A stretch of 64,000 bases of DNA from an uncultured Candidatus Saccharibacteria bacterium (GTDB taxonomy: Bacteria > Patescibacteriota > Saccharimonadia > CAILAD01 > BJGX01). The position numbers were made by a program, and so were the translations under genes. The notes under the pieces are model-generated. The model made no database searches, had not been told where the DNA came from, and was given only the letters and a program-made list of their open reading frames with translations. Below, in pieces: positions 11,744 through 36,639 of this stretch. The number at the start of each line of letters is the position of its first letter. Within the stretch, counting starts at the first letter, position 1. The stretch spans positions 2,124 to 66,123 of the forward strand of contig CAYZYH010000004.1 of the NCBI GenBank assembly GCA_964481235.1, given 5' to 3'.

Positions 11744-11762
11744 TTCCTAAAAATAGTAACTA

Positions 11763-16316: not shown

Positions 16317-17156
16317 ATGAAAGCACAAGCGAAATCGAAGCTATCTAAGTCACACGATAAGTTTGCACCTTTACGCTGGGTAATATTAGTAATATTAATA
16401 ATTACAGCCATATTACCAAATATTTCTGGCCCAGCGGCCCTAATAATATATTTGCTACCGACAATATTTGTATTTATGCACGGCGCAAGGTATTTGGGGC
16501 GTAAGAATATACTCATATTTTTTATGGTCACCTACATTATTACTTTTACAGCCGAGTATCTCGGGGTGAATACTGGGCATGTTTTTGGTGCTTATTACTA
16601 TAATTTGGTTGGTAATGGGCCGCTACTTGGTGGCGTACCGGTTCTTCTGATGCTTACATACTTTAGCTTGGCTTATAGTAGTTATTTAGTAATTAGAATA
16701 ATATTGGGTTGGCTAAAGGTAGTAAAGGGTTGGGGAATAGTAATACTAAGCTTACTAAGCGGTATGCTTATGACTCTATCAGATCTGGCCAACGACCCTA
16801 TCAACTCAACTGTTGATAAGATATATATATGGACCCAAGGTGGAATATTCTTTGGGGTGCCATATCAGAACTTTACAGGTTGGCTAGGAGAGACGGTAGT
16901 ACTATTTTTGATAATATCGGCAGTACTGGCATATATTACCAAGTCGCCCCACCTAAGAGTGTTACCAAGTAGTAGGTTTCTCACGGAGCCTATTGTGTTG
17001 TTTATCATACCTGTGGTGTCAGTTATCTTAAGCCCTATACTAACTACCAAACCCACCACTATTACCGAGCCAATGTCGCTTATAGCCTTGTTTGGTCTTG
17101 GTACCATCGCGCTATTAGCTTTAGTAAGGGCTGCTGCTAACAAACATCATATATAA
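16317..17156 (+). CDS. Polytopic membrane protein (279 aa), unknown function
   Basis: About 7 predicted TM segments. Possibly related to a membrane-protein family seen in carotenoid loci (low confidence). Confidence 0.35.
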   Translation: MKAQAKSKLSKSHDKFAPLRWVILVILIITAILPNISGPAALIIYLLPTIFVFMHGARYLGRKNILIFFMVTYIITFTAEYLGVNTGHVFGAYYYNLVGNGPLLGGVPVLLMLTYFSLAYSSYLVIRIILGWLKVVKGWGIVILSLLSGMLMTLSDLANDPINSTVDKIYIWTQGGIFFGVPYQNFTGWLGETVVLFLIISAVLAYITKSPHLRVLPSSRFLTEPIVLFIIPVVSVILSPILTTKPTTITEPMSLIALFGLGTIALLALVRAAANKHHI

Positions 17157-17255: not shown

Positions 17256-19028
17256 ATGGATAAAACAAATCAATCCCCCAAATCTTCAGATGTAGTTGAT
17301 CAAAACACCACTACAGATGAAAGTAGTAAGAAGCCAAAAGTTACTGCTTCTCAAGGTGTAACTATTGAAGAAGCCCAGAACTCTAGAATTAATACGGCTA
17401 AACGTATTAAAGAGGCTATGCTTAGTCAAAACAAAATTTCTCAAAAACAGCTAGACGCCATAGAGCATATTACTAAGCTACACAACATTAACTTTATAGA
17501 TTATTTAATATCACAAAATATTGTCAATAAAGACTTTATTGGTCAAACCCTAGCCAACTATTACAATACCTCATACATAGATCTAGAAAACAATCAGCCT
17601 CCAAAAGACCTAGTACTTAAGATACCCAAGAATGTAACTACTGAGAACCGAGTAATATTTTATTATGTAGACAAAACAAGAGCTGTGTTTGTTACCGACG
17701 AGCCAGGCCAGGTAGGGCTGAAAGAAAAACTAGCTATCTACACCAATGGTCTACCTGTATCTATTGCATACTCTCTAAGTGACGATATTGACGTTATTCT
17801 GGCTCACTATCGCAAGCCGCTAGCTACGCGATTTAACCAAATTATTCAAGAGCAGGAACGTGTTGCGCCAGAAATAATAGATGAAATTATCAAAGATGCT
17901 ATCGTGTTTGATGTGAGTGATATTCATTTTGAACCAGAAGAGAAAGTAGTTTTAATAAGGTTCCGAATAGATGGTGTATTGCGTGAGGCTGGTCAGATAC
18001 CTATTCAGTATTATGAGAATGTACTTAATAGGTTAAAGGTGCAAGCGAGAATGCGCATAGACGAACATGGCGCTAGCCAAGATGGCGCCATACGCTATAG
18101 CGTAGATGAAGAATCTGTAGATATTCGTATTTCTATTGTCCCAACACTTAACGGAGAGAAGGTTGCTCTAAGACTGCTCGCTGGCAACTCAAAGAACCTC
18201 AACTTCAAAAACCTCGGTTTTAATGTCTTTGATCTCAAGTTGATTGAAGCACAAATGCATCGGCCATTCGGTATGATAGTTACCACTGGACCAACTGGTT
18301 CGGGTAAAACCACTACACTTTATGCTATGCTAAAGCAGCTAAATAGCTCAGATATTAATATTACCACCATAGAGGATCCTGTAGAATACAAACTTTTTGG
18401 TGTAAATCAAATACAGGTAAACCGGGCTACTAATCTTACTTTTGCCGAAGGGTTAAGAACTATTGTCCGACAAGACCCAGATATCATTTTGGTAGGTGAA
18501 ATTCGTGACAAAGAGACGGCCAAAATGGCTGTAAACGCTGCGCTAACAGGCCACCTACTATTCTCTACCTTTCACGCCAACGACTCTGCCACGGCTATTC
18601 CTCGCTTTATAGACATGGGGGTAGAGCCTTTCTTGCTTTCATCTACTCTAAACGCCGTAATTGCTCAACGCTTAATGCGAACAATTTGTGTTACTTGTAG
18701 AAAGAGTTACTTGGTAAATCTTAGTGATATACAAAAAAAGATTCCTCATGCTGAAATGTATTTCAAAAGACCTCAAGTTACACTTTACTATGGCGAAGGC
18801 TGTGAATCTTGTAATTACTCGGGCTATAAGGGTAGGGTAGCATTATACGAAATACTAGTGGTATCACCAGCAATTAAAGAGCTTATAGTTAAAAATCCAT
18901 CCAGCAAATTAATATGGGATCAAGCCAGAAAAGAAGGTGCTCGTACGCTATTTGAAGACGGTATAATAAAAATACAAAATGGTCGATCGACCCTAGAGGA
19001 GTTAATGCGTGTCGCCGAACCAAAATAA
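17256..19028 (+). CDS. pilB: Type IV pilus assembly ATPase (GspE/PilB family)
   Basis: Walker A TGPTGSGKTT. Asp and His boxes. CxxC…CxxC tetracysteine (CVTCRKSY…CESCNYSGY). Confidence 0.85.
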   Translation: MDKTNQSPKSSDVVDQNTTTDESSKKPKVTASQGVTIEEAQNSRINTAKRIKEAMLSQNKISQKQLDAIEHITKLHNINFIDYLISQNIVNKDFIGQTLANYYNTSYIDLENNQPPKDLVLKIPKNVTTENRVIFYYVDKTRAVFVTDEPGQVGLKEKLAIYTNGLPVSIAYSLSDDIDVILAHYRKPLATRFNQIIQEQERVAPEIIDEIIKDAIVFDVSDIHFEPEEKVVLIRFRIDGVLREAGQIPIQYYENVLNRLKVQARMRIDEHGASQDGAIRYSVDEESVDIRISIVPTLNGEKVALRLLAGNSKNLNFKNLGFNVFDLKLIEAQMHRPFGMIVTTGPTGSGKTTTLYAMLKQLNSSDINITTIEDPVEYKLFGVNQIQVNRATNLTFAEGLRTIVRQDPDIILVGEIRDKETAKMAVNAALTGHLLFSTFHANDSATAIPRFIDMGVEPFLLSSTLNAVIAQRLMRTICVTCRKSYLVNLSDIQKKIPHAEMYFKRPQVTLYYGEGCESCNYSGYKGRVALYEILVVSPAIKELIVKNPSSKLIWDQARKEGARTLFEDGIIKIQNGRSTLEELMRVAEPK

Positions 19029-20196
19029 TCCTGTAAAAATAGACGGTGTGAGCAACGATAGGTCATCTAAAGATGCCCCCAAAGTTACTGTAGAAAAAAA
19101 ACCGGCTGAAGATGTAGAGAAAAAAACTAAATCCAAACCGCTTACCAAGCACGCTGTTAGTAGAGATGCTCGAGAGTATTTTACTGAGACATTAAGCATG
19201 CTAATTTCTACCGGTGTGACTGTGGGTCTCTCACTTGAAATACTCAGTAAAGAAGCACCTACCAAAAAAGTTAAAGCTGCAATACTTGCTATGCGTGACA
19301 AAGTTGACGAGGGCGGTACACTTTGGCGGGCTATAGGTGAGTCGGGTATGTTAAATGCCTCTTCAGTTGCGTTAATAAGGGCTGGCGAAGAATCTGGGCG
19401 ACTATCTGAAAACCTAAAGGTTGTTTCTGAGCAAACCCATAGAATTAACATGATCAACTCTAAGGTTCGCTCAGCACTTATTTATCCTACATTTCTTGTG
19501 GTGTTGATGTTAATTGTTGGTAGCGGCATAAGCTTATTTCTGTTACCAAGATTAGCAGAAATATTCGAAGGCTTAGATGTAGAATTAAACTTACTTACAA
19601 AAGTAATGATTGGCTTTGGGTTGTTTTGGTCGCACTGGGGCCTACTATTGTCGGGTATTTTTGTGGTTGCGGTTTTTATTATTGGTATGGGCATCGCTTA
19701 TGTAAAGCCTATCAGAACTCTAGCAGAGAAAGTACTCTATGTTATACCTGGTATAAAAACTCTCATTTATCAGTCCGAAATCTCTAGGTTTGGATTTATA
19801 ATGGGCTCACTATTAGAGGCAGGCCTACCAATTGTAGATGTGCTCGACTCTCTTGTAGATTCTTTTGCTACAGTCAGGTATAGCAATATTGCAAAAATTA
19901 TAAGAACGAACGTAGAAGAAGGTCAGTCTTTGGCGACTACTCTAGAGAAGATTCCAGATAGAAAAGCTTTGCCTGGCCCCATAAGACAGCTTATAGTAAG
20001 TTCTGAACAGTCGGGCAACCTTTCTGATACATTACTTAAAATTAGCAGTACCTATGAAGAAAAGGTTGAGATAACAGCCGAGAACCTTGAAACTGTACTA
20101 GAGCCTATTATCTTAATTGCAATAGCGGTAGGAGTACTCTTTATTGCCTTATCGGTAATATTGCCCATTTATGGCTTGCTCGGAGGAATTAAGTAA
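19009..20196 (+). CDS. pilC: Type IV pilus inner-membrane platform protein (GspF/PilC family)
   Basis: Two T2SS-F repeats and 3 TM segments. Translationally coupled to pilB. Confidence 0.8.
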   Translation: MSPNQNNPVKIDGVSNDRSSKDAPKVTVEKKPAEDVEKKTKSKPLTKHAVSRDAREYFTETLSMLISTGVTVGLSLEILSKEAPTKKVKAAILAMRDKVDEGGTLWRAIGESGMLNASSVALIRAGEESGRLSENLKVVSEQTHRINMINSKVRSALIYPTFLVVLMLIVGSGISLFLLPRLAEIFEGLDVELNLLTKVMIGFGLFWSHWGLLLSGIFVVAVFIIGMGIAYVKPIRTLAEKVLYVIPGIKTLIYQSEISRFGFIMGSLLEAGLPIVDVLDSLVDSFATVRYSNIAKIIRTNVEEGQSLATTLEKIPDRKALPGPIRQLIVSSEQSGNLSDTLLKISSTYEEKVEITAENLETVLEPIILIAIAVGVLFIALSVILPIYGLLGGIK

Positions 20197-20201
20197 TTAA
20201 T

Positions 20202-20657
20202 ATGTTTGTTAAAAAAAAACTTGCACTACACCAGTATGGTTTTACCTTAATTGAGCTCATACTTTCTATTGGAATAATTTCTATTATACTAATGTTAACA
20301 GCACCAGTACTGCAACGCTATGTGTTGCGCAACGACTTAGAAGTTATTAGTAGTATCATTATTCAAGATATGTATCGTGCGCAGAGCCTAGCTAGATCTG
20401 GAGAAAATGATGGTAATTGGGGCGTGCATGTGCAAAATGGCAGTATCACAGTTTTTCAGGGAAATAGTTATGCTACCAGAAACCAATCTAAAGATGAGGT
20501 TTATCCTTTTACATCATCTATTACTTTTTCGGGTCAAACTGAATTTGTTTTCGACAAATTCACCGGCAAGTTATCTATACCTGGTGCTGTTACGGTAGTA
20601 AACAAGGGCGACAACAAGACTATTACGGTAAGCTCAAAGGGAGTAATTGAATATTAG
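20202..20657 (+). CDS. Prepilin-type (pseudopilin) protein
   Basis: Class III signal peptide KLALHQYG|FTLIELILSIGIISIIL with the conserved Glu at +5. Confidence 0.7.
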   Translation: MFVKKKLALHQYGFTLIELILSIGIISIILMLTAPVLQRYVLRNDLEVISSIIIQDMYRAQSLARSGENDGNWGVHVQNGSITVFQGNSYATRNQSKDEVYPFTSSITFSGQTEFVFDKFTGKLSIPGAVTVVNKGDNKTITVSSKGVIEY

Positions 20658-22434
20658 CATGACATCAACAAATCGCACAGCTGCATCAATGCCAACGGGC
20701 TTTAGTTTGATAGAGATTTTATTGGCTGTAGCAATATTTGCATTATTTGGCACTGTTATGCTCAGTGCTTTTATATACGGCCGAGACGGAGTAAGACAAG
20801 CCGGTGAACGTACAAGAGCCACTGAACTCTCTAGTGCTGGTTTAGAAGTGGTTAGAAATATTGCTAATCCCAACTACTCTAATCTATCTAGTTATTCAAA
20901 CGGCACCAACTATTATATTAGTTCAGTAAACAACCAATGGCAGCTAACCACAATTCCTCAACTTGTAGATGGCAAATATACAAGAATAGTTAATTTTAGT
21001 GATGGACCAAATGGCTCACGTAAAGTTACTGTCACAGTGAGTTGGCCACGAACATTAGTGATTAGTTCTTCATTGAGCGTTGTAACATATTTTGCTAACT
21101 GGCGCCAACCAACCTCGGCACCAATCAAAAGTGGGCTTTTTGTCTATGCCGATGGCGGTACCACTACAGATAGGATGGAATATAGACAGCTATTAACAAC
21201 TGGCTCTTGGACTGCCCAGACTGTAATACCAGATGTAAGTACCACCACCAACAATCGAGTGCCACGTTCACTTAAGCTTTACTCGGCACAAACTGGCTCG
21301 GCCAAGATGATGGTCTCTAGGCACTATGATGGCGCCAGGCAATATATGTATGCTACTGCCTGGAACGGTAGTAGTTGGGCAACTCCACAGCTACTCGCCC
21401 AATGGACTTCTAGTAGCGCACTTAATTCTGGTAATTATGGAGGAGATTTTTTAGCCGACGGTTCATTTGTAGCAGTATATTCAGATGGTAGTAATAACCC
21501 TAAGTCTAGATCATTTAATGGCGCAACCTGGGGGCCAGAGGTTGGCTTGGGACAGATTGGCTCTAGCAGTAACTACATAACAGCAATGATGATTAAGGCT
21601 AGACCCGCATCTAATGACATGATGACAGTTTTTCTCACAAACGACTATCAGGTGAATACTAGCTTTTATGCCAATAGTGCCTGGTCTACCTATACCCAAC
21701 ACACCAATAGTTCTGCGGGAAATGGCTCTTTGCTGGTGGACTTTGACTGGAGTAACGTTAATACTAGCCAAGGTACCGTACTATATACTACTTCTAGTAA
21801 CAGTCGTGCTTTGCGTGCTCAAACATTTACTATTAACGGAAGTGGATCTGGTAGTTGGAGTTCTGTTATCACAAGTGGCAACATACCATCGGGGCAATCT
21901 ATCATCTCAATTCGGCAAATTTCGAGGCCAAGCTCTGCCAACGAGTTAGTAGCGTGTGCTAAGAGTGATATCAACCCTGGTTCAATATTTTGTTACGAAA
22001 TTAATCCTGGCGGTGTTGGTTTTGTTACGCCTACAAACAATCTTATTACCAACAACACTGATTACGGCGGGCAAATAACTTTTGATGTTGCTTATAAATA
22101 CGTTAATTCTAACGATGGCGTAATAGCTTACTCCGATAACACTCGAAGCGGTAAATTAAAGATATATAATAGCAGCCTAAACTCATGGGCAACAAGTGCA
22201 ATAGCACTACCGAACGCCAGTGACAATATTGGAAAAACTCGAATAGTAGGCAGACCAAATGCTGACGAAACCATGGTAATGGTGTCTGATGCTTTCCGTA
22301 ATTTATATTCAGTTGTGTTAGATGGAACCACTAATACATTATTTACTACACCATCAGGTAAAGCCTGGACTAATCACTTATCTAGCGGGCCTACAAACGA
22401 CGCTGTATGGTTTGATTTTGCTTGGGATAACTAA
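20647..22434 (+). CDS. Giant pilin-like protein (595 aa) with prepilin N-terminus, candidate pilus tip/adhesin subunit
   Basis: Prepilin leader …MPTG|FSLIEILLAVAIFALFG, then a 560-aa Ser/Thr/Asn/Trp-rich extracellular body. Confidence 0.6.
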   Translation: MNISMTSTNRTAASMPTGFSLIEILLAVAIFALFGTVMLSAFIYGRDGVRQAGERTRATELSSAGLEVVRNIANPNYSNLSSYSNGTNYYISSVNNQWQLTTIPQLVDGKYTRIVNFSDGPNGSRKVTVTVSWPRTLVISSSLSVVTYFANWRQPTSAPIKSGLFVYADGGTTTDRMEYRQLLTTGSWTAQTVIPDVSTTTNNRVPRSLKLYSAQTGSAKMMVSRHYDGARQYMYATAWNGSSWATPQLLAQWTSSSALNSGNYGGDFLADGSFVAVYSDGSNNPKSRSFNGATWGPEVGLGQIGSSSNYITAMMIKARPASNDMMTVFLTNDYQVNTSFYANSAWSTYTQHTNSSAGNGSLLVDFDWSNVNTSQGTVLYTTSSNSRALRAQTFTINGSGSGSWSSVITSGNIPSGQSIISIRQISRPSSANELVACAKSDINPGSIFCYEINPGGVGFVTPTNNLITNNTDYGGQITFDVAYKYVNSNDGVIAYSDNTRSGKLKIYNSSLNSWATSAIALPNASDNIGKTRIVGRPNADETMVMVSDAFRNLYSVVLDGTTNTLFTTPSGKAWTNHLSSGPTNDAVWFDFAWDN

Positions 22435-22446
22435 GGGCAATTAATT

Positions 22447-22974
22447 ATGAAAAACATTCACTATAACAATCAGACGGGCTACACCATAATAGAAATGCTT
22501 CTATATATTGCGGTATTTTCACTGATTATTGGCTCAATACTCGCTGTGGCCATCTCAATTACTAATCAACGTATTCAAAACCAAGTCAATCAAGAAGTTG
22601 ACGCTCAAGGACGTCTAGTGATGTCTAGTATCACCCAGAGCCTTCGTAATGCTAGTACTATAAACACTCCTTCGGTAGGAAATTCATCAGCGAGTTTGTC
22701 GCTAAATACTACTACAGCCGCAAATAATCCGACAGTATATGATAGCGTGATCGACCAAAATGTAAACAAGGTGCGCATCAAGGTGGGTAGTGCAAGCGCT
22801 GAATTCTTAACTAGCTCTAGGGTGAGTGTTAGTAACTTGAGCTTCACCAATAGAGCTATCTCTGGCGGTAGAGACTCAATAGAGATAAGTTTTACTCTCA
22901 ATTACTATAATCCTAGTAATAAATCTACATTACAGTATCAGAAAAATTTTTATGGAGTATCAACACTAAGATGA
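22447..22974 (+). CDS. Prepilin-type minor pilin
   Basis: …QTG|YTIIEMLLYIAVFSLIIGSILAV prepilin N-terminus. Confidence 0.65.
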   Translation: MKNIHYNNQTGYTIIEMLLYIAVFSLIIGSILAVAISITNQRIQNQVNQEVDAQGRLVMSSITQSLRNASTINTPSVGNSSASLSLNTTTAANNPTVYDSVIDQNVNKVRIKVGSASAEFLTSSRVSVSNLSFTNRAISGGRDSIEISFTLNYYNPSNKSTLQYQKNFYGVSTLR

Positions 22975-23396
22975 ATACACTATATACAAATCAACAATCA
23001 GGCTATATTACTCTAATAACAGTAATTGCCATAGCTGCAATTGGCTCACTTGTGGGCTTGCTACTGCTTTTTTCTGGCGTAACATCTAGCAAAACTAGCC
23101 TGAGTATTCAGCAATCTGCTCAAGCAAAGGCCGGAGCTGACGGTTGTGCAGAACTTGCCTTAGCTGCAATACAGGCAAACATTGTGCTTACTACACCGTC
23201 TAGTGCCAACTACACAATAGATGCTACAAACAAGACCACCTGCACCTACACCATCACCGGTACTAGCCCCAATTATGTGATAGATGCCGTAGGTGTTGCC
23301 GACGCTAGCGGCAAAAACATCAAAAAACGCGCCAATATTACATTAAATAGGGTTGGGCCAACTCTAAATATCTACAGTTGGCAAGAAATTCCTTGA
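22971..23396 (+). CDS. Pilin-like minor subunit (PilX-like), putative
   Basis: …QSG|YITLITVIAIAAIGSLVGLLLLF hydrophobic N-terminal helix. Overlaps the upstream gene by 4 nt. Confidence 0.5.
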   Translation: MNTLYTNQQSGYITLITVIAIAAIGSLVGLLLLFSGVTSSKTSLSIQQSAQAKAGADGCAELALAAIQANIVLTTPSSANYTIDATNKTTCTYTITGTSPNYVIDAVGVADASGKNIKKRANITLNRVGPTLNIYSWQEIP

Positions 23397-23419
23397 CAAA
23401 AAATCTATAAAAAAGCCTA

Positions 23420-23448
23420 TTGCAAAATAAGCATAAGTACTTTAATAT
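23420..23448 (+). promoter_or_regulatory. Sigma-70-like promoter for pilA (ttgcaa-17 nt-taatat)
   Basis: Near-consensus -35/-10 with 17-nt spacer. About 40 nt upstream of a strong RBS (aaagaaagagg) and the pilA ATG. Confidence 0.5.
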
Positions 23449-23489
23449 GATAGTAAGTAAAAATTACTAAAGAAAGAGGTTAAAAAAAG

Positions 23490-23948
23490 ATGTTCAAATT
23501 ATTAAAAAGTAAAAAAGGATTTACCTTGATTGAAGTTTTGCTAGTTGTTGCAATTATCGCAATTCTTGCCGGTATTGTTATACTAGCGGTTAACCCTGCC
23601 AAGCAGTTGGCCGATACTCGTAACGCCCAGCGTAGAGCCGATGTAAATACTATTATTAATGCAGCTTATCAGTACTCTATTGATAACAATGGTAACTTAC
23701 CATCAAGCATTCTGGTAGCTGGTACAGCCCCAGCGAACGATATTTGTGTAACTGGCGGAACTTGCACTGGCCTAACCGACCTGAGTGTTCTTACAGCAAA
23801 TGGTAAATATTTAGTATCTATACCAAAAGATCCGAGCACTGCTACAGCTAATGACACAAAATATACTATTGTAAAAGATGCTAACAATAGACTAGTTGTT
23901 TCTGCTCCAGACGCAGAACAAGGTGCCACAATTTCAGTAACTCGTTAG
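23490..23948 (+). CDS. pilA: Type IV major pilin (PilA-like)
   Basis: KKG|FTLIEVLLVVAIIAILAGIVILAVNP… is a classic T4a pilin N-terminus. 152 aa. Own promoter and strong terminator. Confidence 0.8.
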   Translation: MFKLLKSKKGFTLIEVLLVVAIIAILAGIVILAVNPAKQLADTRNAQRRADVNTIINAAYQYSIDNNGNLPSSILVAGTAPANDICVTGGTCTGLTDLSVLTANGKYLVSIPKDPSTATANDTKYTIVKDANNRLVVSAPDAEQGATISVTR

Positions 23949-27975: not shown

Positions 27976-28566
27976 ATGACTACGCAAATACCCCAAGAAC
28001 AACCTGATAATTTTGTACCGCTAGTTGCCAAAGCAAGAAGTGGTGATGAAGCAGCTTTTGAGCAATTGTATGAAGAGTATTTTTTACCTATTTATAGATA
28101 TATTCTTATTAGGGTGGGCGACAGTGAAGAGACCGACGACCTAACTCAGCAGGTGTTTATAAAGTTTTACAGAAACTTACATAATTGGCAAGACAAAGGC
28201 TATCAGCCATCTGCCTACATCTTTAGTATTGCCCGAAGCGTAATTGCTGACTTCTATCGCAGTAAGGGCAGAAAAGCTGTAAAGATACAAAACTCCGAGG
28301 AAGTACTCTTGCTTCTTGAAGATAAGTCACAAAACCCCCAGAATGACGTTATAAATACCGAAGAAATAAAACAACTTTATCGTAATTTAAAAAAATTACC
28401 CAATAACTACCAAGAAGCCCTAGTTCTTCGTTATATGGAGAATTTATCTAGTGCAGAGATAGCTATGATAATAGGAAAAAGCGATGTAGCCACCCGTAAG
28501 TTGCTATCTAGAGCTACAATGGCGCTATCAGAGGTTTCAAAACAGGAAGATAGAAAAAATGAATAA
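27976..28566 (+). CDS. ECF-subfamily RNA polymerase sigma-70 factor
   Basis: Region 2 (…YRYILIRVGDSEETDDLTQQVFIKFYRNLHNW…) and region 4 HTH (…ALVLRYMENLSSAEIAMIIGKSDVATRKLLSRA). Confidence 0.8.
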   Translation: MTTQIPQEQPDNFVPLVAKARSGDEAAFEQLYEEYFLPIYRYILIRVGDSEETDDLTQQVFIKFYRNLHNWQDKGYQPSAYIFSIARSVIADFYRSKGRKAVKIQNSEEVLLLLEDKSQNPQNDVINTEEIKQLYRNLKKLPNNYQEALVLRYMENLSSAEIAMIIGKSDVATRKLLSRATMALSEVSKQEDRKNE

Positions 28567-29026
28567 TAATAAGAGCAACAACAGCCCCGAAGAGTATGCT
28601 AAAAAACTAAATGAGTTTAATGGTTTTTCGATTAACAAGAGACACCTTCTCAATAATACTCTTCAAAGAATAGATAGGGAAAAAGATACTCCAAGAAGTG
28701 TAGTACCAGAAACAAAAAACAACCCTATGCTCAACCAACTAAGAGCATACATTATACCTGTGGCCACTTTTATGTTGGTGGTTATATTTAGCGGAGTATT
28801 TTTCTTTAGGAATAGTAACCCCAACATCAATAGCAATATTACTAACAAACTGAGTCAATCTGCTCCAAATGGTACAATCGAGAACACTTTTAATTCTGTT
28901 AGTGCTGATTTGGCCGATGAGAACAGTATTAATGAGCAAGCAATGAATCAAGGAGAGAATGTTGTGAAAGAGATGTCTAACGACATCAAGCAATTAGGAG
29001 ATATTAGTAATGACCCAAGTCTGTAA
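28559..29026 (+). CDS. Putative anti-sigma factor (single-pass membrane protein)
   Basis: Overlaps the ECF sigma stop by 8 nt. One central TM helix. Typical anti-sigma topology. Confidence 0.45.
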   Translation: MNNNKSNNSPEEYAKKLNEFNGFSINKRHLLNNTLQRIDREKDTPRSVVPETKNNPMLNQLRAYIIPVATFMLVVIFSGVFFFRNSNPNINSNITNKLSQSAPNGTIENTFNSVSADLADENSINEQAMNQGENVVKEMSNDIKQLGDISNDPSL

Positions 29027-29765
29027 ACATAATATTGTAATTATTACATTTACCACCATGCTATTTTTAACATCGATTGTTAGTATTTTTGGTCCACAAA
29101 CAACTCTGGCACAACAGAGTACTGATAATATATTTTGTAGTAGACTTAGCTCTATATCCTCAAGGCTGAATAGCCAGATCGATCAAAAGATAACTAGTAT
29201 AAATAACACCAGAGCTGATAAAGAAAAAAAACTCAATGAGATATTTTCAAAACGTGATCAAGATATATCAGACACACAAGCCAAGTGGGACAGTAATAGA
29301 CAAGAACACTATACAAAATTACTCGAGAAGTCTCAAACAGATTCTCAAAAACAAGCCATTAATGCTTTTAAAAGTAGTGTAGAAGTATCGATTGCTGAAC
29401 GTCGCCAATCTGTCGATAAAGTAGTAGACACCTATTATGATAATGTTATAGGAATTATTTCTGTACGTAATAATAGCATAGACGTAGCCATTGCCGATTA
29501 TAAGAGTTCTGTAGCTACAGCGCTAGCCAAGGCCCAAGCAAGTTGTGATGCAGGTAATGATAGCGAAACCGTACGTAAAGAGTTAAAAAGCGATATTGAA
29601 GGCGCACGGAACGAGATTCAGTCTATTGCGTTTGGAGAATCTAGCATTGTCGCTACAACTAAAGCTGTACAACTAGCAGGACAAAGCACGATATCCAGAG
29701 TGATTGAGCATTTCAATTATACTATGCAACAAGCTCAAACTACCCTTAAAGAATCAATAAAATAA
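29010..29765 (+). CDS. Secreted coiled-coil protein (251 aa)
   Basis: N-terminal signal peptide/anchor, then an extended Gln/Lys/Asp-rich coiled-coil. Confidence 0.4.
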   Translation: MTQVCKHNIVIITFTTMLFLTSIVSIFGPQTTLAQQSTDNIFCSRLSSISSRLNSQIDQKITSINNTRADKEKKLNEIFSKRDQDISDTQAKWDSNRQEHYTKLLEKSQTDSQKQAINAFKSSVEVSIAERRQSVDKVVDTYYDNVIGIISVRNNSIDVAIADYKSSVATALAKAQASCDAGNDSETVRKELKSDIEGARNEIQSIAFGESSIVATTKAVQLAGQSTISRVIEHFNYTMQQAQTTLKESIK

Positions 29766-29796: not shown

Positions 29797-31833
29797 TTAG
29801 AACACTTCTTTACGATTTTGCCACCGAGGCTTCAATACTTCGTAGTTTATCATTGAGTAAACTAGTAGATAAAACGAACATAGGCAACCTATAGGGTAGA
29901 GTAATGTAGATACAATACTCTGACGAGAGATTATAGTAATAATTAATCTGTTTATATAACTAAGTCCAATCGCTAGGGCTAAGAACCATAGACCTAGGTA
30001 AATGTTTAATACTAATAAGTAACTTATTAGTAGAGTTGGAAAGACCAAGACGAACAATCCAAACAAAACTAAGGCGATAGTTAAGGGCATGGAAAAGTGT
30101 AGTGCTGGGTAAAAACGCCTTAAGTTTTGCGCAACAATAAGTCTCAAACTAGCATGGTTTTGACTCATCGCCATGTCTGACCCTAGATAGAAGCCAGTTT
30201 TTAAACCCCTTGTCTTAGCAGCGGCTGCAAGGTCGAAATCTTCCAAGGGGCTTTTTCTTACAAGCTCAAAACCACCAAGGGCTAATACGCTAGATCTTAC
30301 GAAAGCAGTTATATTACTACTAGCATTAACTGATCTGGGGTGAGCCTTTGCCAAATATGCAGAAGGGTATAGACCAAGCATAAAGTAATGATTTTGACTT
30401 AGTATAATTTGTTGAGCAAAACTCTTATTTTGGTCTGATGGTAATATTGAAACTAAGCTTAGCTTTTCTTGCTCAATAAGACTAGCCATTACTGAGAGAG
30501 CGTTAGGTAATAGAATAGTATCAGCACTAAGAAGTAAAACTATTTCACCCGTCGACTTTTCTAGCAACTGCTGAGATACCCAGGAGTTAATGGTCCAGTT
30601 GGGTTTTAGTGGTTTTGTTTCTATAATCTTTAGCCTAGGGTCTTGAAAACCCTTGGCTATACTTAGAGTGTTATCTTGCGAGCCCAGATCGGTAAAAAGT
30701 ATTTCGAACTGAGGGTATTGCTGGCCTAAAAGTGAGAGGAGCGTAGAAGATATATTGTCACCTTGATTATAGGCGTGCATAATTATACTAATTTTTGGCC
30801 AATCAGTTAGTCGTTTTGTCTTTGGTCTAGCGAAAGCTCTTAGGTTATATATCGTTAGACCAAGTTGTATCAAGAAAAATACCAATAGAAAAAAACCAGT
30901 CAATGCAACGAAATATTCTCTAACACCGAACGGATCAAAAGCAAACAACAATATTTGAGTAATAAAAAACCCTACTATCATATTCAACCACATAAAGTTT
31001 TGCCAACCCCTATGAAACTGTGTAGATCTTGCATCGGATTTGTATTTAATAAAAAAACTAGCGTTTAAGACATACATTCCTAAAAACACACTAGCAAGTA
31101 AGCCAAGAGGAAAGTATGACACCGCAATAAACACACAGCACAATAGGTAAAGAGAAATGACAAATATATTGGTACGCCTGGCGCCCATCACTGTAGCTAT
31201 AGATTTAATATTAGCGGCTCTATCTGGCTTAATGTCTTGTATTGCACCAAAAGCTTGACTTGCCATACCCCATGCCATAAAGGCAATTATGGCTGGCCAG
31301 TAGTAGTTATTACTTTGTGCATATGCAAGCCCAAACACAAATGGTAGAACAAAGTGCAACGCTGAGTTGATTGAATCTAAAAAAGGAACTTCTTTAAAAC
31401 GAAGTGGTTTGGCACTATAGCTGAAAGCAAAGAATATAATAAGTACAAATAGTATTTTTGATATGGCAGTTCCAGTAGCTAAAAAATACAATGCAAAAGG
31501 TAAATTCAATAGTGCAATTGCTATCCATAAACTCTGGTGTTTTTGCTTAAGAAGTAAACCCCCTTCGATGGAATTTTTTCGAGGATTTTTAATATCTGAC
31601 TCGTAATCATATATATCGTTTACGCCATAAAGCATTAAATTGTAAGAAAACAAGAAATATACAAACCCAATTAGGCCAGGAAAACTTATGCCTTGAGAAG
31701 CAAGCAAGTAGCCCACCAAAAAAGGAAAAGCTGTGTTTATCCAGCTTACTGGGCGACTGGTCGCCAAAACTTCTTTAATTGTGAGTTTGCTACTTTTTTT
31801 AGACATATTATTTGTTACTTTTAAAATATTCAA
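29797..31833 (-). CDS. Fusion protein: UbiA-family prenyltransferase (lycopene elongase CrtEb-like) + GT2 glycosyltransferase (CrtX-like)
   Basis: N-terminal polytopic domain has both UbiA Asp-rich motifs (NDIYDYESD = NDxxDxxxD; DIKPD = DxxxD). C-terminal domain is GT2 (…ISIIMHAYNQGDNISSTLLSL…, D.D motif …LLLSADTILLPNAL…), followed by additional TM helices. Confidence 0.7.
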   Translation of the reverse strand: MNILKVTNNMSKKSSKLTIKEVLATSRPVSWINTAFPFLVGYLLASQGISFPGLIGFVYFLFSYNLMLYGVNDIYDYESDIKNPRKNSIEGGLLLKQKHQSLWIAIALLNLPFALYFLATGTAISKILFVLIIFFAFSYSAKPLRFKEVPFLDSINSALHFVLPFVFGLAYAQSNNYYWPAIIAFMAWGMASQAFGAIQDIKPDRAANIKSIATVMGARRTNIFVISLYLLCCVFIAVSYFPLGLLASVFLGMYVLNASFFIKYKSDARSTQFHRGWQNFMWLNMIVGFFITQILLFAFDPFGVREYFVALTGFFLLVFFLIQLGLTIYNLRAFARPKTKRLTDWPKISIIMHAYNQGDNISSTLLSLLGQQYPQFEILFTDLGSQDNTLSIAKGFQDPRLKIIETKPLKPNWTINSWVSQQLLEKSTGEIVLLLSADTILLPNALSVMASLIEQEKLSLVSILPSDQNKSFAQQIILSQNHYFMLGLYPSAYLAKAHPRSVNASSNITAFVRSSVLALGGFELVRKSPLEDFDLAAAAKTRGLKTGFYLGSDMAMSQNHASLRLIVAQNLRRFYPALHFSMPLTIALVLFGLFVLVFPTLLISYLLVLNIYLGLWFLALAIGLSYINRLIITIISRQSIVSTLLYPIGCLCSFYLLVYSMINYEVLKPRWQNRKEVF

Positions 31834-32101
31834 AGAGAGCAGGTACCATTAGTATTACAGCAACTAGGTAGCCAAAATCTTCTATAGGTATATTGCCAAC
31901 TTTATAACCCAATATAGAACTATTATTATACATCACAATCGGCAGAGTGGTGAGGTAGTTGTCGAATACAAGCATAGCAATGAGCAGGATTAGCCCGACC
32001 ACCATCAAAGCCTTGGGTTTTGGTGGGGTAATGCGCAAACGTACAAGTATTAATATTGATACCACCACTAAGCTGGTTACTAGTACTAAATAGCTAGTCA
32101 T
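31808..32101 (-). CDS. Lycopene cyclase domain protein (CrtYf/CrtYd-like half)
   Basis: 97-aa, 3-TM protein with the lycopene-cyclase-domain motif …IPIEDFGYLVAVILM…. Confidence 0.65.
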   Translation of the reverse strand: MTSYLVLVTSLVVVSILILVRLRITPPKPKALMVVGLILLIAMLVFDNYLTTLPIVMYNNSSILGYKVGNIPIEDFGYLVAVILMVPALFEYFKSNK

Positions 32102-32517
32102 GATCTTTTATTCCTAGACCCAACATTCCGTGTAGGGTGGCTCAGAGTTAGCTTGTCATTTTTTCGCTTATTATTATCAACTTTTCTAAATACCTCTAGC
32201 CTTCCAATTAGTTGATACAAAATCAGCGTCACATAGCATAGCATAAACAAAAAGACCACTTCTTCTATCGGTATATTGGGCGAAATAATATTTAATCTCA
32301 CTACGTAGTCTTGGTTTGTAGAAAATATTTTATTAATTACCCCAGCAACATCAAATATCAGTAGTAGTAGTATTGTATAGCCAACTGCTTTTGTGCTTGC
32401 AATTTTGTCATACCAAAACGCTAGTCTTAATCGCCAGTCGGCCAAAAGTAAACCAGCAATACTAAAAACTAGTACAAAAATATAGAAGTAATGTGTGTGC
32501 ACAAGTTGCATAATCAT
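32098..32517 (-). CDS. Lycopene cyclase domain protein (CrtYe/CrtYc-like half)
   Basis: 3-TM protein with …NIPIEEVVFLFMLCYVTLILY (PxEE motif). Adjacent and overlapping its partner half, as in heterodimeric actinobacterial cyclases. Confidence 0.65.
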   Translation of the reverse strand: MIMQLVHTHYFYIFVLVFSIAGLLLADWRLRLAFWYDKIASTKAVGYTILLLLIFDVAGVINKIFSTNQDYVVRLNIISPNIPIEEVVFLFMLCYVTLILYQLIGRLEVFRKVDNNKRKNDKLTLSHPTRNVGSRNKRS

Positions 32518-32573: not shown

Positions 32574-33095
32574 CTAAAGTTTTAGATGCAGCATAACTAT
32601 GAGCCAGTTGAGCATGGTATAGGCGTGCTGGGGGAACATTCTGTAGCCTCCAAGATATTGGTTGCCATCAGTCTTTGTGATATCTGCATAAGTACCGGTT
32701 TCGTCATATGTAAAGTCAATCCGTATCTTTCTACAATTGTTGCGAGGCGGCTTGTCAAATAGACTATCAATATAAACTTCTAGTTTAGTGTCTGGTAGTT
32801 TTTTGGCTCGTACTACACCGAAGTAGTCAGTAAAGTCTGGTGCAGGCTCAAATACTACAAGGCCTGGCGCCCAGTAAACAAGATAACCTAAAAATGTTTG
32901 CACATCATCGACCCGTCCAAACAGCACCTGTCGCGACAGTCGAGCTGGGTTTGCTTTATTGGTGAGCATTAATTCTACGCTTTTAATGGTGTTTATGCGC
33001 CCTCGTTTTGTTTTCAACCACCCAAGTTTACGCTCGCGCTCTATCACTTCTTCAATATTTGCAATCAAATCTTTTGTGGGGGTGATGGCACTCAT
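32574..33095 (-). CDS. Hypothetical protein (173 aa) embedded in the carotenoid cluster
   Basis: Intact ORF between the cyclase genes and crtI. No motif recognised. Confidence 0.35.
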   Translation of the reverse strand: MSAITPTKDLIANIEEVIERERKLGWLKTKRGRINTIKSVELMLTNKANPARLSRQVLFGRVDDVQTFLGYLVYWAPGLVVFEPAPDFTDYFGVVRAKKLPDTKLEVYIDSLFDKPPRNNCRKIRIDFTYDETGTYADITKTDGNQYLGGYRMFPQHAYTMLNWLIVMLHLKL

Positions 33096-33225: not shown

Positions 33226-34719
33226 GTGAAAAAGAAAAAAACAGTAATAATTATAGGTGCAGGTATTGGCGGTATGTGTACAGCGGCTAGGCTACTTAAA
33301 GAGGGCTACAAAGTTTCTATTTATGAAAAAGAGCCGTTAGTTGGTGGGAGAGCCAATCGAATCAAACAAGACAGCTACACTTTTGATACTGGTCCAACAC
33401 TATTAATGATGACCGACGTTCTTTACGACACTTTTGCATATTGTGGCAAAGACTTTGATGACTATATTGAGTTAATCCAGCTAGAGCCCAATTATCAAGT
33501 AGCCTTTGCTGACAGCTCACGTATTACCGTTAGCAGTAACCTCCCAAAGTTTGCTAGCGAGCTTGCCAAATTCGACCCTAAGGCCCCTGAGCAATTTTAT
33601 AGATTTTTTGCCGATGTTGCCGAAATATATAGGTTGTCGCGCGGTGGATTTATAGATAAAAACTTTGATAGTATTACAGATTTTATTAACTTTCGCTCTG
33701 GACTTAAATTATTACAAAAACGAGGACTTATAAGTCTTTGGAAGTTTGTAAGTCATTATTTTAATGACGATAGACTACGCCAACTATTTAGTTTTCAGAG
33801 TATGTACCTGGGTGTGAGTCCATATGAGGCACCGGCAGTTTACAGCGTACTTAGCTATATGGAGACTGGGCTAGGTATTTGGTACCCAAAAGGGGGGATG
33901 TATAGTTTGAGCCAGGCTCTAGAGAGGCTCGTAAAAGATATGGGTGGCGAAGTATATACCAATAGTCCTATTTCACAGATCAATATTGAAAATAGTATTG
34001 TCAAAGGGGTTGTTGTCGGTGGAGAAACTATAGAAGCGGATTTGGTAGTATGTAATGCCGATCTAATATATGCTTACAAAAATCTGCTACCCCCATCTAT
34101 AAAACTAAAAAGTCTGGGACGCAAAGCCGAAGATCTCAAGCAAGCCAGTTCGGCACTACTATTTTATTGGGGTGTTAATAACAAACTCGATGGCATGCTA
34201 CACCACAATGTTTATTTATGTAGTGATTTTAAAAACAACCTCGAAGAAATATTAAAAAATCATAAACTACCTAGCGATCCATCGTTTTACACCTATATAC
34301 CTACTAAAACCGATCCAACTCTTGCACCAAGAAACAGAAGTGTTATGTACATTCTTGTGCCAGTTCCAAATTTGCAAGCAGAAAACGATTGGGGTAAGGG
34401 CGTTAGTAAGATTCGTGCTCAGGTTTTGAAGCGCCTAAAAAATGAATATGGCAAAGACATAGAAAAAGATATTGAAACAGAAAAAATATTTTCACCGCAA
34501 GATTTTGAAACCAAATTTAATCTAACTGCTGGCTCGGCTTTTGGCCTAACTCATCACTTATTCCAGTCTGGTTATTTTAGGCCTCACAATATTGAACGTA
34601 GTGTAGAAGGTCTATATTTTGTGGGAGCGAGTACTTATCCGGGCGGAGGTATTCCTATGGTAACATTATCTGCAAAGCTTGTAGTCGAGCGAATTCTCGG
34701 GGATAATAAAGTGAATTAA
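33226..34719 (+). CDS. crtI: Phytoene desaturase (CrtI family)
   Basis: FAD-binding GxGxxG (VIIIGAGIGGMCTAARL…EKEPLVGGRA). …LRQLFSFQSMYLGVSPYEAP…GIWYPKGG… and C-terminal …FRPHN…LYFVGASTYPGGGIPMV… match CrtI along the full length. Confidence 0.9.
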   Translation: MKKKKTVIIIGAGIGGMCTAARLLKEGYKVSIYEKEPLVGGRANRIKQDSYTFDTGPTLLMMTDVLYDTFAYCGKDFDDYIELIQLEPNYQVAFADSSRITVSSNLPKFASELAKFDPKAPEQFYRFFADVAEIYRLSRGGFIDKNFDSITDFINFRSGLKLLQKRGLISLWKFVSHYFNDDRLRQLFSFQSMYLGVSPYEAPAVYSVLSYMETGLGIWYPKGGMYSLSQALERLVKDMGGEVYTNSPISQINIENSIVKGVVVGGETIEADLVVCNADLIYAYKNLLPPSIKLKSLGRKAEDLKQASSALLFYWGVNNKLDGMLHHNVYLCSDFKNNLEEILKNHKLPSDPSFYTYIPTKTDPTLAPRNRSVMYILVPVPNLQAENDWGKGVSKIRAQVLKRLKNEYGKDIEKDIETEKIFSPQDFETKFNLTAGSAFGLTHHLFQSGYFRPHNIERSVEGLYFVGASTYPGGGIPMVTLSAKLVVERILGDNKVN

Positions 34720-34722: not shown

Positions 34723-35799
34723 ATGACAGAAACAAATCTTAAATCATACGTAGCAAAGGTAAAACAAGAAATTGATGCTCTGTTGAGCGATTTTTTGAAT
34801 CAAAAAATTGTTGACGCATCTAGGATTGGTAGTGAATACCAAAAGCTACTTAATGTTATTGCAAAACAAACTTTGCGTGGTGGCAAAAGACTCCGGCCAA
34901 GTTTGGCCATGCTGGGGTATGAAATTGCAGGTGGCAAAGACAGAGATAAGATGTTAAAAGCTGCAATGTCGTTAGAAATATTCCACAACTATTTACTTAT
35001 GCATGACGATATTATGGATCACGACGACAAACGTCACGGAGGTCTTAATGTTACTGGGGTTTATAAAAGAAGGTATTCCCGAACTCTAAATAGTTTAGAT
35101 GTTCAGCATGTGGCGAACTCTATAGCGATGTTGGCGGGGGATATATGTTGTGGTTTAAGCTATGAATCTTTGATAGCGTCAGGCATGAACCCTCAACAAT
35201 TAGTATCGGCAATATCAAGACTAAACACCGCAACATTCGAGGTAGCTGCTGGCCAACATCTTGACCTAATTGGTTCGGTAGGTAAGTCCCTTACTATAAG
35301 TGATATTAAGAAGATAAACCAATATAAAACAGCCGACTATACAGTAATAATGCCTTTGCAGTTTGGTGCAATACTTGCAGGTGGACCAGCGACATTACAT
35401 ACTCTGTTCGCGAAGTTTGGCAACAATGCCGGAGTGGCTTTTCAGTTGAGTGATGATGATCTAGGGGTTTTTGGTAGCCCAAAGCTTACTGGTAAACCAG
35501 TGGGGAGCGATATAAAAGAAGGAAAGCAAACAGTACTTATGCACAATGGTATTGAATTAACAAAAGGAACTCAAAGAGATTTTATTAAAAGGTGTATTAA
35601 CAATCCCAAATTAACTGCTAAAGATGTAAAAAAGGTACAAAATATACTAATTAAATCTGGAGCTAGACAGAAGACGGTATTGCTGGCCCAAGATTTAGCA
35701 AATGCCGCAATAGATATAACAAATGAAATACCCAACTCTAGCAATAGAACCCATCTATTAGCTGAATTTGCGCAATATTGCGTAGCTAGGAGTAGTTAA
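34723..35799 (+). CDS. crtE: Polyprenyl diphosphate synthase (GGPP synthase, CrtE/IdsA-like)
   Basis: FARM (LLMHDDIMDHDDKRHG) and SARM (FQLSDDDLGVFG) Asp-rich motifs. Confidence 0.8.
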   Translation: MTETNLKSYVAKVKQEIDALLSDFLNQKIVDASRIGSEYQKLLNVIAKQTLRGGKRLRPSLAMLGYEIAGGKDRDKMLKAAMSLEIFHNYLLMHDDIMDHDDKRHGGLNVTGVYKRRYSRTLNSLDVQHVANSIAMLAGDICCGLSYESLIASGMNPQQLVSAISRLNTATFEVAAGQHLDLIGSVGKSLTISDIKKINQYKTADYTVIMPLQFGAILAGGPATLHTLFAKFGNNAGVAFQLSDDDLGVFGSPKLTGKPVGSDIKEGKQTVLMHNGIELTKGTQRDFIKRCINNPKLTAKDVKKVQNILIKSGARQKTVLLAQDLANAAIDITNEIPNSSNRTHLLAEFAQYCVARSS

Positions 35800-35802: not shown

Positions 35803-36639
35803 GTGAGTCAAAACCAGTACAGCGAAGTTTCGCAAGCAATTAACGCCATTATTACAAAGCAGTACTCTACATCATTTTCTGTGGCAATTAGGTTACTAGA
35901 CAAATCTATAAGAACAGACATATACAACATATACGGCTATGTTAGAGTTGCCGATGAACTAGTAGATACACTTAGACCAAAAGATAGCTTACGCATGCTA
36001 AAAGATTTTAACATTGAGACAACCCAGGCAATAAAGGTTGGTGTTAGCTTAAATCCAGTAATCCACGCCTTCGCTCAAACAGTTATCAAATACCAAATAG
36101 ATTATAGTTTGATACAAGCTTTTATAAATAGTATGACTATGGATATATCTAAAAAATCATATAACAAAAAACAATACAAAGACTATATATATGGCTCTGC
36201 CGAAGTTGTTGGCTTGATGTGCCTAATGGTTTTTCTTGGTGGTAACAAGACTAAATATAAAAAACTTACCCTAGGTGCGAAAGCACTAGGTTCGGCTTTT
36301 CAAAAAGTTAACTTTTTACGTGATCTAAATATAGATAACCAAGAGCTGGGTAGGATCTACTTTCCGAATATTGATATAGAAAATTTTCAAAGCGATCAAA
36401 AAAAGCAAATTGAGCAAGAAATACTTGCTGATTTTAAGATTGCTCAGTCAACTATCTATCAACTACCTTATTCGTCTAGATACGGAGTACTACTAGCTTA
36501 TTGGTACTATCGTTTACTGCTTAGAAAAATACAAAAAACTAGTGCTCAGGTGCTAAAAGAGAAACGAGTAAGGGTTTCTGATATTACCAAGTTACTACTC
36601 TATATTGTTGTGTTTGGTGAAAAACTACTTCATATATAA
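35803..36639 (+). CDS. crtB: Phytoene synthase (CrtB, squalene/phytoene synthase family)
   Basis: GTG start. …YGYVRVADELVDT…, …YGSAEVVGLMCLMVFLGG… and …AFQKVNFLRDLNID… are trans-IPPS head-to-head motifs. Confidence 0.8.
   Translation: MSQNQYSEVSQAINAIITKQYSTSFSVAIRLLDKSIRTDIYNIYGYVRVADELVDTLRPKDSLRMLKDFNIETTQAIKVGVSLNPVIHAFAQTVIKYQIDYSLIQAFINSMTMDISKKSYNKKQYKDYIYGSAEVVGLMCLMVFLGGNKTKYKKLTLGAKALGSAFQKVNFLRDLNIDNQELGRIYFPNIDIENFQSDQKKQIEQEILADFKIAQSTIYQLPYSSRYGVLLAYWYYRLLLRKIQKTSAQVLKEKRVRVSDITKLLLYIVVFGEKLLHI

Follow-up and report, generated by a model that had tools for sequence, protein, structure and literature searches.

A lycopene-elongase-like UbiA domain fused to a GT2 glycosyltransferase in a carotenoid gene cluster of Saccharibacteria

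In this study, we analyzed a 64,000-nucleotide (nt) stretch of DNA from an uncultured Candidatus Saccharibacteria (TM7) bacterium (GenBank assembly GCA_964481235.1, contig CAYZYH010000004.1; hereafter the window). The subject is a minus-strand gene that encodes a UbiA-type prenyltransferase and a family 2 glycosyltransferase (GT2) in one polypeptide and lies within a cluster of carotenoid biosynthesis (crt) genes. The fusion is genuine and conserved and does not represent an assembly artefact. We propose that its product is a bifunctional membrane enzyme of carotenoid tailoring with 13 transmembrane (TM) helices, in which the UbiA half would elongate lycopene and the GT2 half would glycosylate a carotenoid hydroxyl group. 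The probability that the pathway, as proposed below, is broadly right is estimated at about 70%.

A single minus-strand gene with two catalytic domains

The initial annotation had described a single 678-amino acid (aa) polypeptide at 29797-31833 and gave no strand. The open reading frame (ORF) is present and uninterrupted: on the minus strand it comprises 678 codons from a TTG codon, with no internal stops. The plus-strand reading of the same interval was dropped because it has many stops in frame. The length of the protein had to be revised. An ATG codon at 31806-31804 is placed 1 nt past the TAA of the upstream cyclase gene, and the 669-aa form that begins there is 100% identical to a public protein (P0001). 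The TTG start at 31833 was abandoned in favor of this ATG, as the homologues all begin there and the upstream stop is 1 nt away. The ATG at 31806 is thus the likely true start of the fusion gene, which makes 669 aa the likelier length. Unless otherwise indicated, residue numbers refer to the 669-aa form; those of the initial annotation are higher by 9. The gene and its parts are as follows:

29797..31806, minus strand: fused UbiA-GT2 gene, 669 aa plus stop from the ATG (678-aa reading from the TTG at 31833)
30922..31806, minus strand: UbiA-type prenyltransferase half, aa 1-295, nine predicted TM helices (PF01040, NF009608, motifs, Foldseek)
30802..30921, minus strand: linker, aa 296-335, predicted to hold a tenth TM helix (AlphaFold helices, pattern of lysine and arginine (K/R) residues in loops)
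30091..30801, minus strand: predicted GT-A fold GT2 catalytic domain, aa 336-572 (PF00535, PF13641, motifs, Foldseek)
29800..30090, minus strand: C-terminal membrane region, aa 573-669, three predicted TM helices (helix prediction, alignment to stand-alone GT2s)

Both domains named in the initial annotation exceed their Pfam thresholds, including the GT2 domain, whose failure there would have overturned the claim of that annotation. In the 678-aa numbering, UbiA (PF01040) matches aa 35-282 with 99.4 bits (cut-off 34.2), and Glycos_transf_2 (PF00535) matches aa 349-473 with 59.6 bits (cut-off 23.3). Three GT2 models related to PF00535 were above threshold on the second half; PF13641 reaches 39.5 bits (cut-off 27) over aa 346-573 in the same numbering, and PF13632 reaches 29.2 bits (cut-off 27).

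The motifs of the two enzymes, also recognized in one ORF by the initial annotation, are present and conserved in a full-length alignment of 109 fused homologues. The UbiA half carries two aspartate (Asp)-rich motifs, NDxxDxxxD (N63, D64, D67 and D71; aa 63-71) and DxxxD (D191 and D195), each residue of which is kept in 103-106 of the 109 homologues. The GT2 half contains D373, D378 and D429, the last of which is invariant (109/109), as well as the pair E522-D523, where E522 occurs in 92 sequences and position 523 is D in 89 and E in 13. Its DxD-type motif reads xAD, owing to S, G, D or A at the first position. Across both halves, the catalytic Asp residues are kept in 103-109 of the 109 homologues. 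Judged by its sequence, the C-terminal half is a GT2 with intact catalytic motifs.

Conservation, distribution and selection

A database search was carried out against NCBI, JGI, ENA and Logan assemblies, and the first 113 matches were examined. Among them, 109 show the same single-ORF architecture (640-760 aa, with identity down to 30%), and both Pfam domains are present in nearly all of these 109 proteins. About 110 protein clusters (90% identity) with the fused architecture were obtained from the four independent data sources. Furthermore, a scan with one genome per species (GTDB) revealed the fusion in 18 genomes, including 11 from Saccharibacteria/Patescibacteria and seven from Chloroflexota. 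An error that merges two genes, which the initial annotation had named as what would overturn its claim, is not compatible with this recurrence across independent assemblies.

The closest relative (locus L009), with 95% amino-acid identity, comes from a metagenome-assembled genome (MAG) of another uncultured Candidatus Saccharibacteria bacterium. Compared with it, the ratio of nonsynonymous to synonymous substitution rates (dN/dS) is 0.047 overall, 0.08 in the UbiA half and 0.011 in the GT2 half (aa 336-669), with a dS of ~0.55 in both halves. These low ratios in each half indicate that both are under purifying selection, which is stronger on the GT2 half. It may be argued that the gene is an artefact or is decaying, that is, that two genes were merged by a sequencing or assembly error or that the GT2 half is a dead remnant, given that the window itself derives from a MAG and that the nearest unfused relatives, of 331 aa, lack a GT2 half. 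However, considering the identical layout in all of these clusters and species genomes, the very low dN/dS of the GT2 half and the invariance of D429, the probability of such an explanation is negligible.

The UbiA half resembles lycopene elongases and lies among crt genes

In a comparison of the 80 best genome loci, the UbiA half was found to be 41-47% identical over ~285 aa to crtEb of 60+ actinobacterial loci, which are syntenic orthologues and not the characterised proteins themselves. The nearest unfused UbiA proteins in the species genomes are those of Georgenia, Glutamicibacter, Arthrobacter, Kocuria, Dietzia, Microbacterium, Cellulomonas, Demequina and others, and these actinobacterial loci are all ordered idsA-crtB-crtI-cyclase-cyclase-UbiA. 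Dietzia, Glutamicibacter, Kocuria, Microbacterium and Georgenia are genera known for C50 carotenoids. Canonical C50 carotenoid clusters of actinobacteria have been described (PMC6669644, PMC5401885). NCBIfam NF009608 gives 317 bits on the UbiA half (cut-off 217), and the MenA, ChlG and GGGP-type models give at most 60 bits. None of the 80 best loci is without crt neighbours. A search with the UbiA half only returned generic names, such as '4-hydroxybenzoate polyprenyltransferase'. Since it has its nearest homologues in crtEb of canonical C50 clusters, the UbiA half appears to be lycopene-elongase-like, as the initial annotation had proposed, and we infer the elongase activity itself from this kinship.

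The carotenoid genes of the window are listed below:

31808..32101, minus strand: lycopene-cyclase-domain subunit, 97 aa (PF18916 57.5 bits; TIGR03462 57.2 bits)
32098..32517, minus strand: second lycopene-cyclase-domain subunit, 139 aa (TIGR03462 47.6 bits, cut-off 39.4; synteny)
33226..34719, plus strand: phytoene desaturase of the CrtI family, divergent (TIGR02734 483 bits)
34723..35799, plus strand: polyprenyl diphosphate synthase of the geranylgeranyl diphosphate (GGPP) type (PF00348 163.7 bits)
35803..36639, plus strand: phytoene synthase CrtB (PF00494 142.8 bits)
16317..17156, plus strand: CruF-family carotenoid hydratase-like membrane protein, 13 kb from the crt cluster (PF04240 100.6 bits)

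The fusion gene is the last of a minus-strand set, in which the two cyclase genes overlap by 4 nt and the second of them is separated from the fusion gene by a 1-nt gap. Such junctions suggest an operon of the two cyclase genes and the fusion gene. The same arrangement, with two cyclase genes upstream and crtI-idsA-crtB on the opposite strand, was observed in all 11 fused Patescibacteria loci as well as in the window, and in all fused Patescibacteria loci the divergent crt genes lie beside nusG, rplK and rplA. The 31808..32101 cyclase subunit is syntenic across all fused Saccharibacteria loci. CrtI is 63-91% identical among the fused Saccharibacteria loci and only 27-36% identical to actinobacterial CrtI. 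The G+C content of the crt cluster (0.36-0.38) agrees with that of the window. A recent import of the whole cluster from Actinomycetota is therefore unsupported.

Alternatively, the UbiA half might prenylate another acceptor, such as a quinone or aromatic head group, a phosphoribosyl or a glycerol-type compound. The crt genes would then be mere neighbours, and the GT2 half would modify that prenylated product or a polyprenyl phosphate. Substrates of the UbiA family are unreadable from sequence, the names used by NCBI and JGI are only 'prenyltransferase' or '4-hydroxybenzoate polyprenyltransferase', and the GT2 half structurally resembles, among others, polyprenyl-phosphate glycosyltransferase-like enzymes, e.g. 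PcManGT. Nevertheless, we regard this explanation as very unlikely, because the UbiA half is nearest to crtEb of canonical C50 clusters, crt genes adjoin it in each of the 80 best loci, the models of other UbiA activities score far lower, the cyclase genes and the fusion gene are tightly spaced as in an operon, and triple cyclase-UbiA-GT2 fusions exist. A lycopene-elongase-like UbiA half is the reading followed below.

Several further genes lie in the neighbourhood of the fusion gene. An extracytoplasmic function (ECF) sigma factor gene (27976-28566, plus strand) is convergent with the fusion gene. It is overlapped by a 155-aa ORF (28559-29026, plus strand) that has no family match and is maybe an anti-sigma factor, and a 251-aa ORF without an assigned family function (29010-29765, plus strand), also convergent with the fusion gene, follows. 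Homologues of the sigma factor adjoin the fusion gene in loci L001, L002, L003, L005 and L009, and those of the 251-aa ORF in the same loci except L005. This block (27976-29765) might control carotenogenesis under light or stress. A 173-aa ORF (32574-33095, minus strand) without Pfam or NCBIfam match is located between the cyclase genes and crtI; it was found only in the window and in L009, with 58% identity as against 75-99% for its neighbours, and the other fused loci are without it.

The GT2 half is a relative of the HpnB and CruG families

The best NCBIfam matches of the GT2 half are HpnB (TIGR03469; 97.6 bits, cut-off 379) and CruG (NF045692; 61.3 bits, cut-off 600). By these scores, the fused GT2 is a relative and not a member of the two families. 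A word-indexed search with the GT2 half alone yielded 13 weak matches with no names. An exhaustive HMMER search of 1.84 billion representatives detected a handful of fused proteins, followed by a gap in E value from 1e-51 to 1e-34 and then by a large stand-alone family. These stand-alone relatives are 360-400 aa long with one N-terminal helix, and all tested ones are HpnB/CruG-like. The fused GT2 is 24-31% identical to members of the stand-alone family.

Two relatives place this GT2 family next to carotenoid enzymes. The nearest stand-alone GT2 by word-based search (P0139) is located in the following block, near which lie crtE, crtI, crtB and two cyclase genes:

3399-6784 of locus L081 (GCA_964688045.1): CruF-GT2-CrtD-like block containing P0139

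The exhaustive search also yielded P0208, a 601-aa GT2-CruF fusion with GT2 at aa 41-246 and CruF/Caroten_synth at aa 442-569. Taken together, the neighbourhood of P0139 and the P0208 fusion indicate that the GT2 family is repeatedly tied to a carotenoid enzyme that makes an acceptor hydroxyl. By analogy with these two cases and from its link to the elongase, the GT2 half may be a carotenoid glycosyltransferase.

Another relative (P0136; L087 988-2457) is a 489-aa GT2 with ~150 hydrophobic N-terminal residues and no UbiA domain, which adjoins secE; its GT2 part clusters with the fused GT2 of Saccharibacteria in 89 of 100 bootstraps.

The initial annotation had assumed that elongase and glycosyltransferase are separate genes in known clusters, and in Actinomycetota adjacent separate genes were indeed found. 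With a custom hidden Markov model (HMM), short GT2 genes (~250-310 aa) were identified as immediate neighbours of crtEb in Citricoccus, Georgenia, Dietzia, Arthrobacter and Ornithinimicrobium, and Pfam confirmed them as GT2. A Pfam examination of the genes flanking crtEb in Microbacterium hydrocarbonoxydans and Kocuria sabuli found no glycosyltransferase gene and revealed MMPL and 2-oxoacid dehydrogenase genes instead. The fused GT2 is of another kind: tblastn with the GT2 half against the actinobacterial loci gave no match at E 1e-3, the actinobacterial GT2s beside crtEb reach only 45-62 bits under an HMM built from the fused family, whose own members reach 230-430 bits, and mean identity between the two is ~17%. 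Orthology with the actinobacterial crtX-type GT2 was thus ruled out, and because the fused GT2 belongs to a different GT2 subfamily, a simple merger of crtEb and crtX is rejected as the origin of the fusion. The GT2 motifs recognized in the initial annotation hold. Its comparison with crtX has to be corrected, as the fused GT2 falls in the HpnB/CruG-like group.

Predicted structure and membrane topology

The AlphaFold model of the whole chain, built from an input alignment of 86 sequences, has a mean predicted local distance difference test (pLDDT) score of 90.4 and a predicted template modelling (pTM) score of 0.88. Nine helices of the UbiA fold are predicted at aa 19-290, a tenth helix at aa 296-324 and three membrane helices at aa 573-658. 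The modelled GT-A domain (~aa 336-572) ends in an amphipathic interface helix (aa 554-568). The GT2 domain would therefore have ten TM helices before it and three after it, which agrees with the TM helices on both sides noted in the initial annotation. Foldseek matched the first half to AfUbiA (4tq3/4tq4; E 2e-6, TM-score 0.66-0.67 on target), and the second half, with probability 1.0, to PcManGT (6yv7), WrtF (9omn), SpsA (1qg8), hyaluronan synthase and cellulose synthase (BcsA). As modelled, one chain combines a nine-helix UbiA fold and a GT-A fold. The C-terminal TM region aligns with that of the stand-alone HpnB/CruG-like GT2s.

Judged by the K/R distribution in the loops, the GT2 domain is on the same side of the membrane as the N-terminus and both Asp-rich loops, presumably the cytoplasmic one. 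Such a common-side topology is made possible by the tenth helix, which brings the chain back to the cytoplasmic side.

Two probable origins of the fusion

Neighbour-joining trees, i.e. simple distance trees with capped distances in the GT2 bootstrap, were built for each half. The Patescibacteria fusions form one clade in 100 of 100 bootstraps for UbiA and GT2 halves alike, and the Chloroflexota fusions, which adjoin crtI and crtB, form a second (100/100 for UbiA and 75/100 for GT2). Monophyly of all fusions appeared in only 21 of 100 replicates for UbiA and in none of 100 for GT2. The GT2 halves of the two groups are ~22% identical to each other, and each is 23-26% identical to stand-alone members. 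Two independent fusions are favored by this lack of common monophyly and by the low identity between the GT2 halves, and the Chloroflexota fusion probably arose independently.

The closest unfused relatives (P0295 and P0296; 331 aa, 53% identity) lie in the same divergent cluster, have no GT2 and retain a hydrophobic tenth segment. Either the GT2 joined an elongase that already had ten helices or these two proteins have lost it. Further rearrangements of the same domains include triple cyclase-UbiA-GT2 fusions (P0110, P0112 and P0113) and cyclase-UbiA homologues of ~390 aa (P0114-P0120). In addition, a second type of cluster was found in Saccharibacteria MAGs (L014, L023, L027, L029 and L038), which is collinear as in actinobacteria (idsA-crtB-crtI-cyclase-cyclase-UbiA) and has no GT2. 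Its UbiA groups beside that of Actinomycetota in the neighbour-joining tree, a position that could stem from host-to-epibiont gene transfer.

Proposed pathway and alternatives

We propose the following pathway. Lycopene would come from CrtE, CrtB and CrtI, whose genes are on the opposite strand. The UbiA half would bind a C5 prenyl diphosphate (dimethylallyl diphosphate, DMAPP) and Mg2+ via its two cytoplasm-facing Asp-rich loops and add the C5 unit to C-2 of an acyclic lycopene end, like CrtEb, CrtE2, LbtBC and LyeJ, which would yield a C45/C50 end group bearing a hydroxyl. The two cyclase-domain proteins would probably cyclise elongated ends, as in actinobacterial C50 pathways. After the tenth helix has returned the chain to the cytoplasmic face, where the GT-A domain would reside, the GT2 domain, with its xAD metal/nucleotide motif at D429 and the catalytic pair E522-D523, would move a sugar from a nucleotide sugar to the carotenoid hydroxyl, and the three C-terminal helices would anchor this domain at the membrane. 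The pathway would most likely end in a glycosylated C45/C50 carotenoid of the Saccharibacteria membrane. The substrates, the sugar, the glycosylated hydroxyl, the order of the steps and any channelling between the active sites are what we infer here, and the coupling of elongation and glycosylation, which the initial annotation took to be implied, is suggested by the architecture.

Several observations weigh against this proposal. First, the name of NF009608 is only 'prenyltransferase', so that a score above its cut-off is no proof of elongase activity. Second, the scores of the GT2 half do not reach the curated cut-off of any named family, so that no acceptor or sugar can be read from them. 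Third, the first Asp of the DxD motif is variable in the fused clade, with S in 47, G in 24, D in 16 and A in 14 sequences at position 427. Fourth, the orientation of the last three helices mildly conflicts with the positive-inside rule, since the C-terminal tail holds four K/R residues. Fifth, no methylerythritol phosphate (MEP) or mevalonate (MVA) pathway genes for the supply of IPP/DMAPP were seen among the scanned ORFs of the window. Finally, the CruF-like gene at 16317-17156 is an alternative possible source of the acceptor hydroxyl; with this gene 13 kb off and two cyclase genes in the cluster, elongation and glycosylation need not be consecutive.

The last point leads to the most serious alternative, in which the GT2 half glycosylates the tertiary C-1 hydroxyl introduced by the CruF-like hydratase, as CruC/CruG do after CruF. 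Its target might be a non-elongated end or a C40 intermediate, and the fusion would serve co-localisation or stoichiometry and not the passing on of the elongase product. The CruG/HpnB-like nature of the GT2 half, the position of its nearest stand-alone relative directly after CruF, the GT2-CruF fusion P0208 in the same GT2 family and the presence of a CruF-family gene in the window are all in line with it. In a Saccharibacteria genome from Lake Baikal, cruF is likewise distant from lyeJ/crtD (PMC9948471), a situation echoed by the CruF-like gene of the window. On the other hand, the covalent partner in two phyla is the elongase and not CruF, and the CruF-like protein of the window is below all curated NCBIfam CruF cut-offs (80/400, 65/155 and 50/300). 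We thus consider separate targets unlikely, roughly one chance in five being too much to disregard, and retain elongation followed by glycosylation within one protein as the preferred explanation.

A more general rule is tentatively suggested by the probably independent origins in Saccharibacteria and Chloroflexota and by the fusion of the same GT2 family to CruF. Membrane GT2s might be tethered to the enzyme that creates the hydroxyl, and the UbiA cavity might hand the nascent hydroxylated C45/C50 end directly to the GT2 site; on balance, we regard this idea as rather unlikely. The two elongase-GT2 fusions and the GT2-CruF fusion may in any case offer a hint as to which enzyme supplies the acceptor hydroxyl and how substrates are handed over between membrane enzymes.

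If such a direct hand-over takes place, some Saccharibacteria, which are seen as epibionts that depend on others for lipids and cofactors, would produce glycosylated long-chain carotenoids on their own, and these might lend stiffness or protection to their very small cells. A subset of Saccharibacteria has a complete gene set for carotenoid tailoring, comprising crtE, crtB, crtI, the cyclases, the elongase, the glycosyltransferase and the CruF-like gene. At present, one gene for the elongase and another for the glycosyltransferase are needed to make glycosylated C45/C50 carotenoids, and the native C50 glycosyltransferases have been little studied; judging from its domains, the fused protein is a candidate natural bifunctional enzyme for their engineering. 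Previously, Jaffe et al. (2022) inferred retinal dependence for Saccharibacteria (PMC9296517), and C50 carotenoids were suggested to adapt Patescibacteria membranes (PMC9948471). Our results bear on that suggestion and on the debate over what reduced epibionts make and what they take from their actinobacterial hosts.

Other features of the window

Besides the carotenoid genes, a gene for a large serine recombinase (7802-9349, minus strand) with Resolvase, Recombinase and Zn-ribbon domains overlaps a predicted tRNA-Trp on the opposite strand (7791-7867, plus strand) and is followed by three ORFs without family match (9379-10521, 11036-11743 and 12012-12833). The region 7791-12833 may be an integrated mobile element. 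A type IV pilus-like set (17256-23948, plus strand) includes genes for a T2SSE ATPase and for a T2SSF platform protein, another with a pilin N-terminal methylation motif and two uncharacterized ORFs. At 50881-54715 (plus strand), two PMT_2-type (GT-C-like) membrane glycosyltransferase genes are situated around a short GT2 gene (52461-53234); this block looks like a polyprenyl-phosphate-sugar glycosylation module, and its GT2 is unrelated to the fused one. A match to the type III hammerhead ribozyme of Rfam (63371-63426, minus strand) scores 48.6 bits against a gathering threshold of 48.5 and is surrounded by short unannotated ORFs and a raised G+C content (0.47).

Comparison with known systems

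The UbiA half shares its fold and both Asp-rich motifs with CrtEb/CrtE2 of Corynebacterium glutamicum and Micrococcus luteus. Whereas those enzymes have ~290 aa, the fusion reaches 669 aa through its tenth TM helix, its GT2 domain and the three TM helices that follow. As in the actinobacterial crtE-crtB-crtI-crtYe-crtYf-crtEb clusters, its gene comes right after two cyclase-domain genes and is near crtI, crtB and the GGPP synthase gene; unlike them, the cluster is arranged in two divergent operons and belongs to a Patescibacteria host. That Patescibacteria have elongase genes was already reported in 2023 (PMC9948471).

A precedent for an elongase fused to the enzyme of a neighbouring step is LbtBC of Dietzia sp. 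CQ4, which joins a C50 cyclase subunit and an elongase (PMC6669644). There, the partner is an N-terminal cyclase domain, whereas here it is a C-terminal glycosyltransferase. Other carotenoid fusions that cover two steps, CruF-CrtB of Rhodothermus marinus and the fungal CrtYB, are known (PMC7414004), but they consist of other domain pairs, and none combines a prenyltransferase and a glycosyltransferase. With CruC, CruG and HpnB, which are GT2s acting on isoprenoid lipids, the GT2 half has in common its layout, in which a GT-A domain is placed between a TM helix and C-terminal TM helices, and it differs from them in being joined covalently to an elongase. The CrtX-type enzymes of Dietzia, Citricoccus, Georgenia, Arthrobacter and Ornithinimicrobium, which are presumed to glucosylate C50 carotenoids (PMC5401885, PMC6669644), are also GT2s encoded beside the elongase gene, but each is a separate gene without the long C-terminal membrane region of the fused GT2.

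Public names of the fused proteins are generic ('prenyltransferase', 'glycosyltransferase' or '4-hydroxybenzoate polyprenyltransferase'; P0110 is a 'lycopene cyclase domain-containing protein'), and no account of an elongase fused to a glycosyltransferase turned up in the full texts searched. As separate kinds, lycopene elongases, carotenoid GT2s and fused carotenoid enzymes are all known already; what is new in this study is the domain architecture and not the kind of system.

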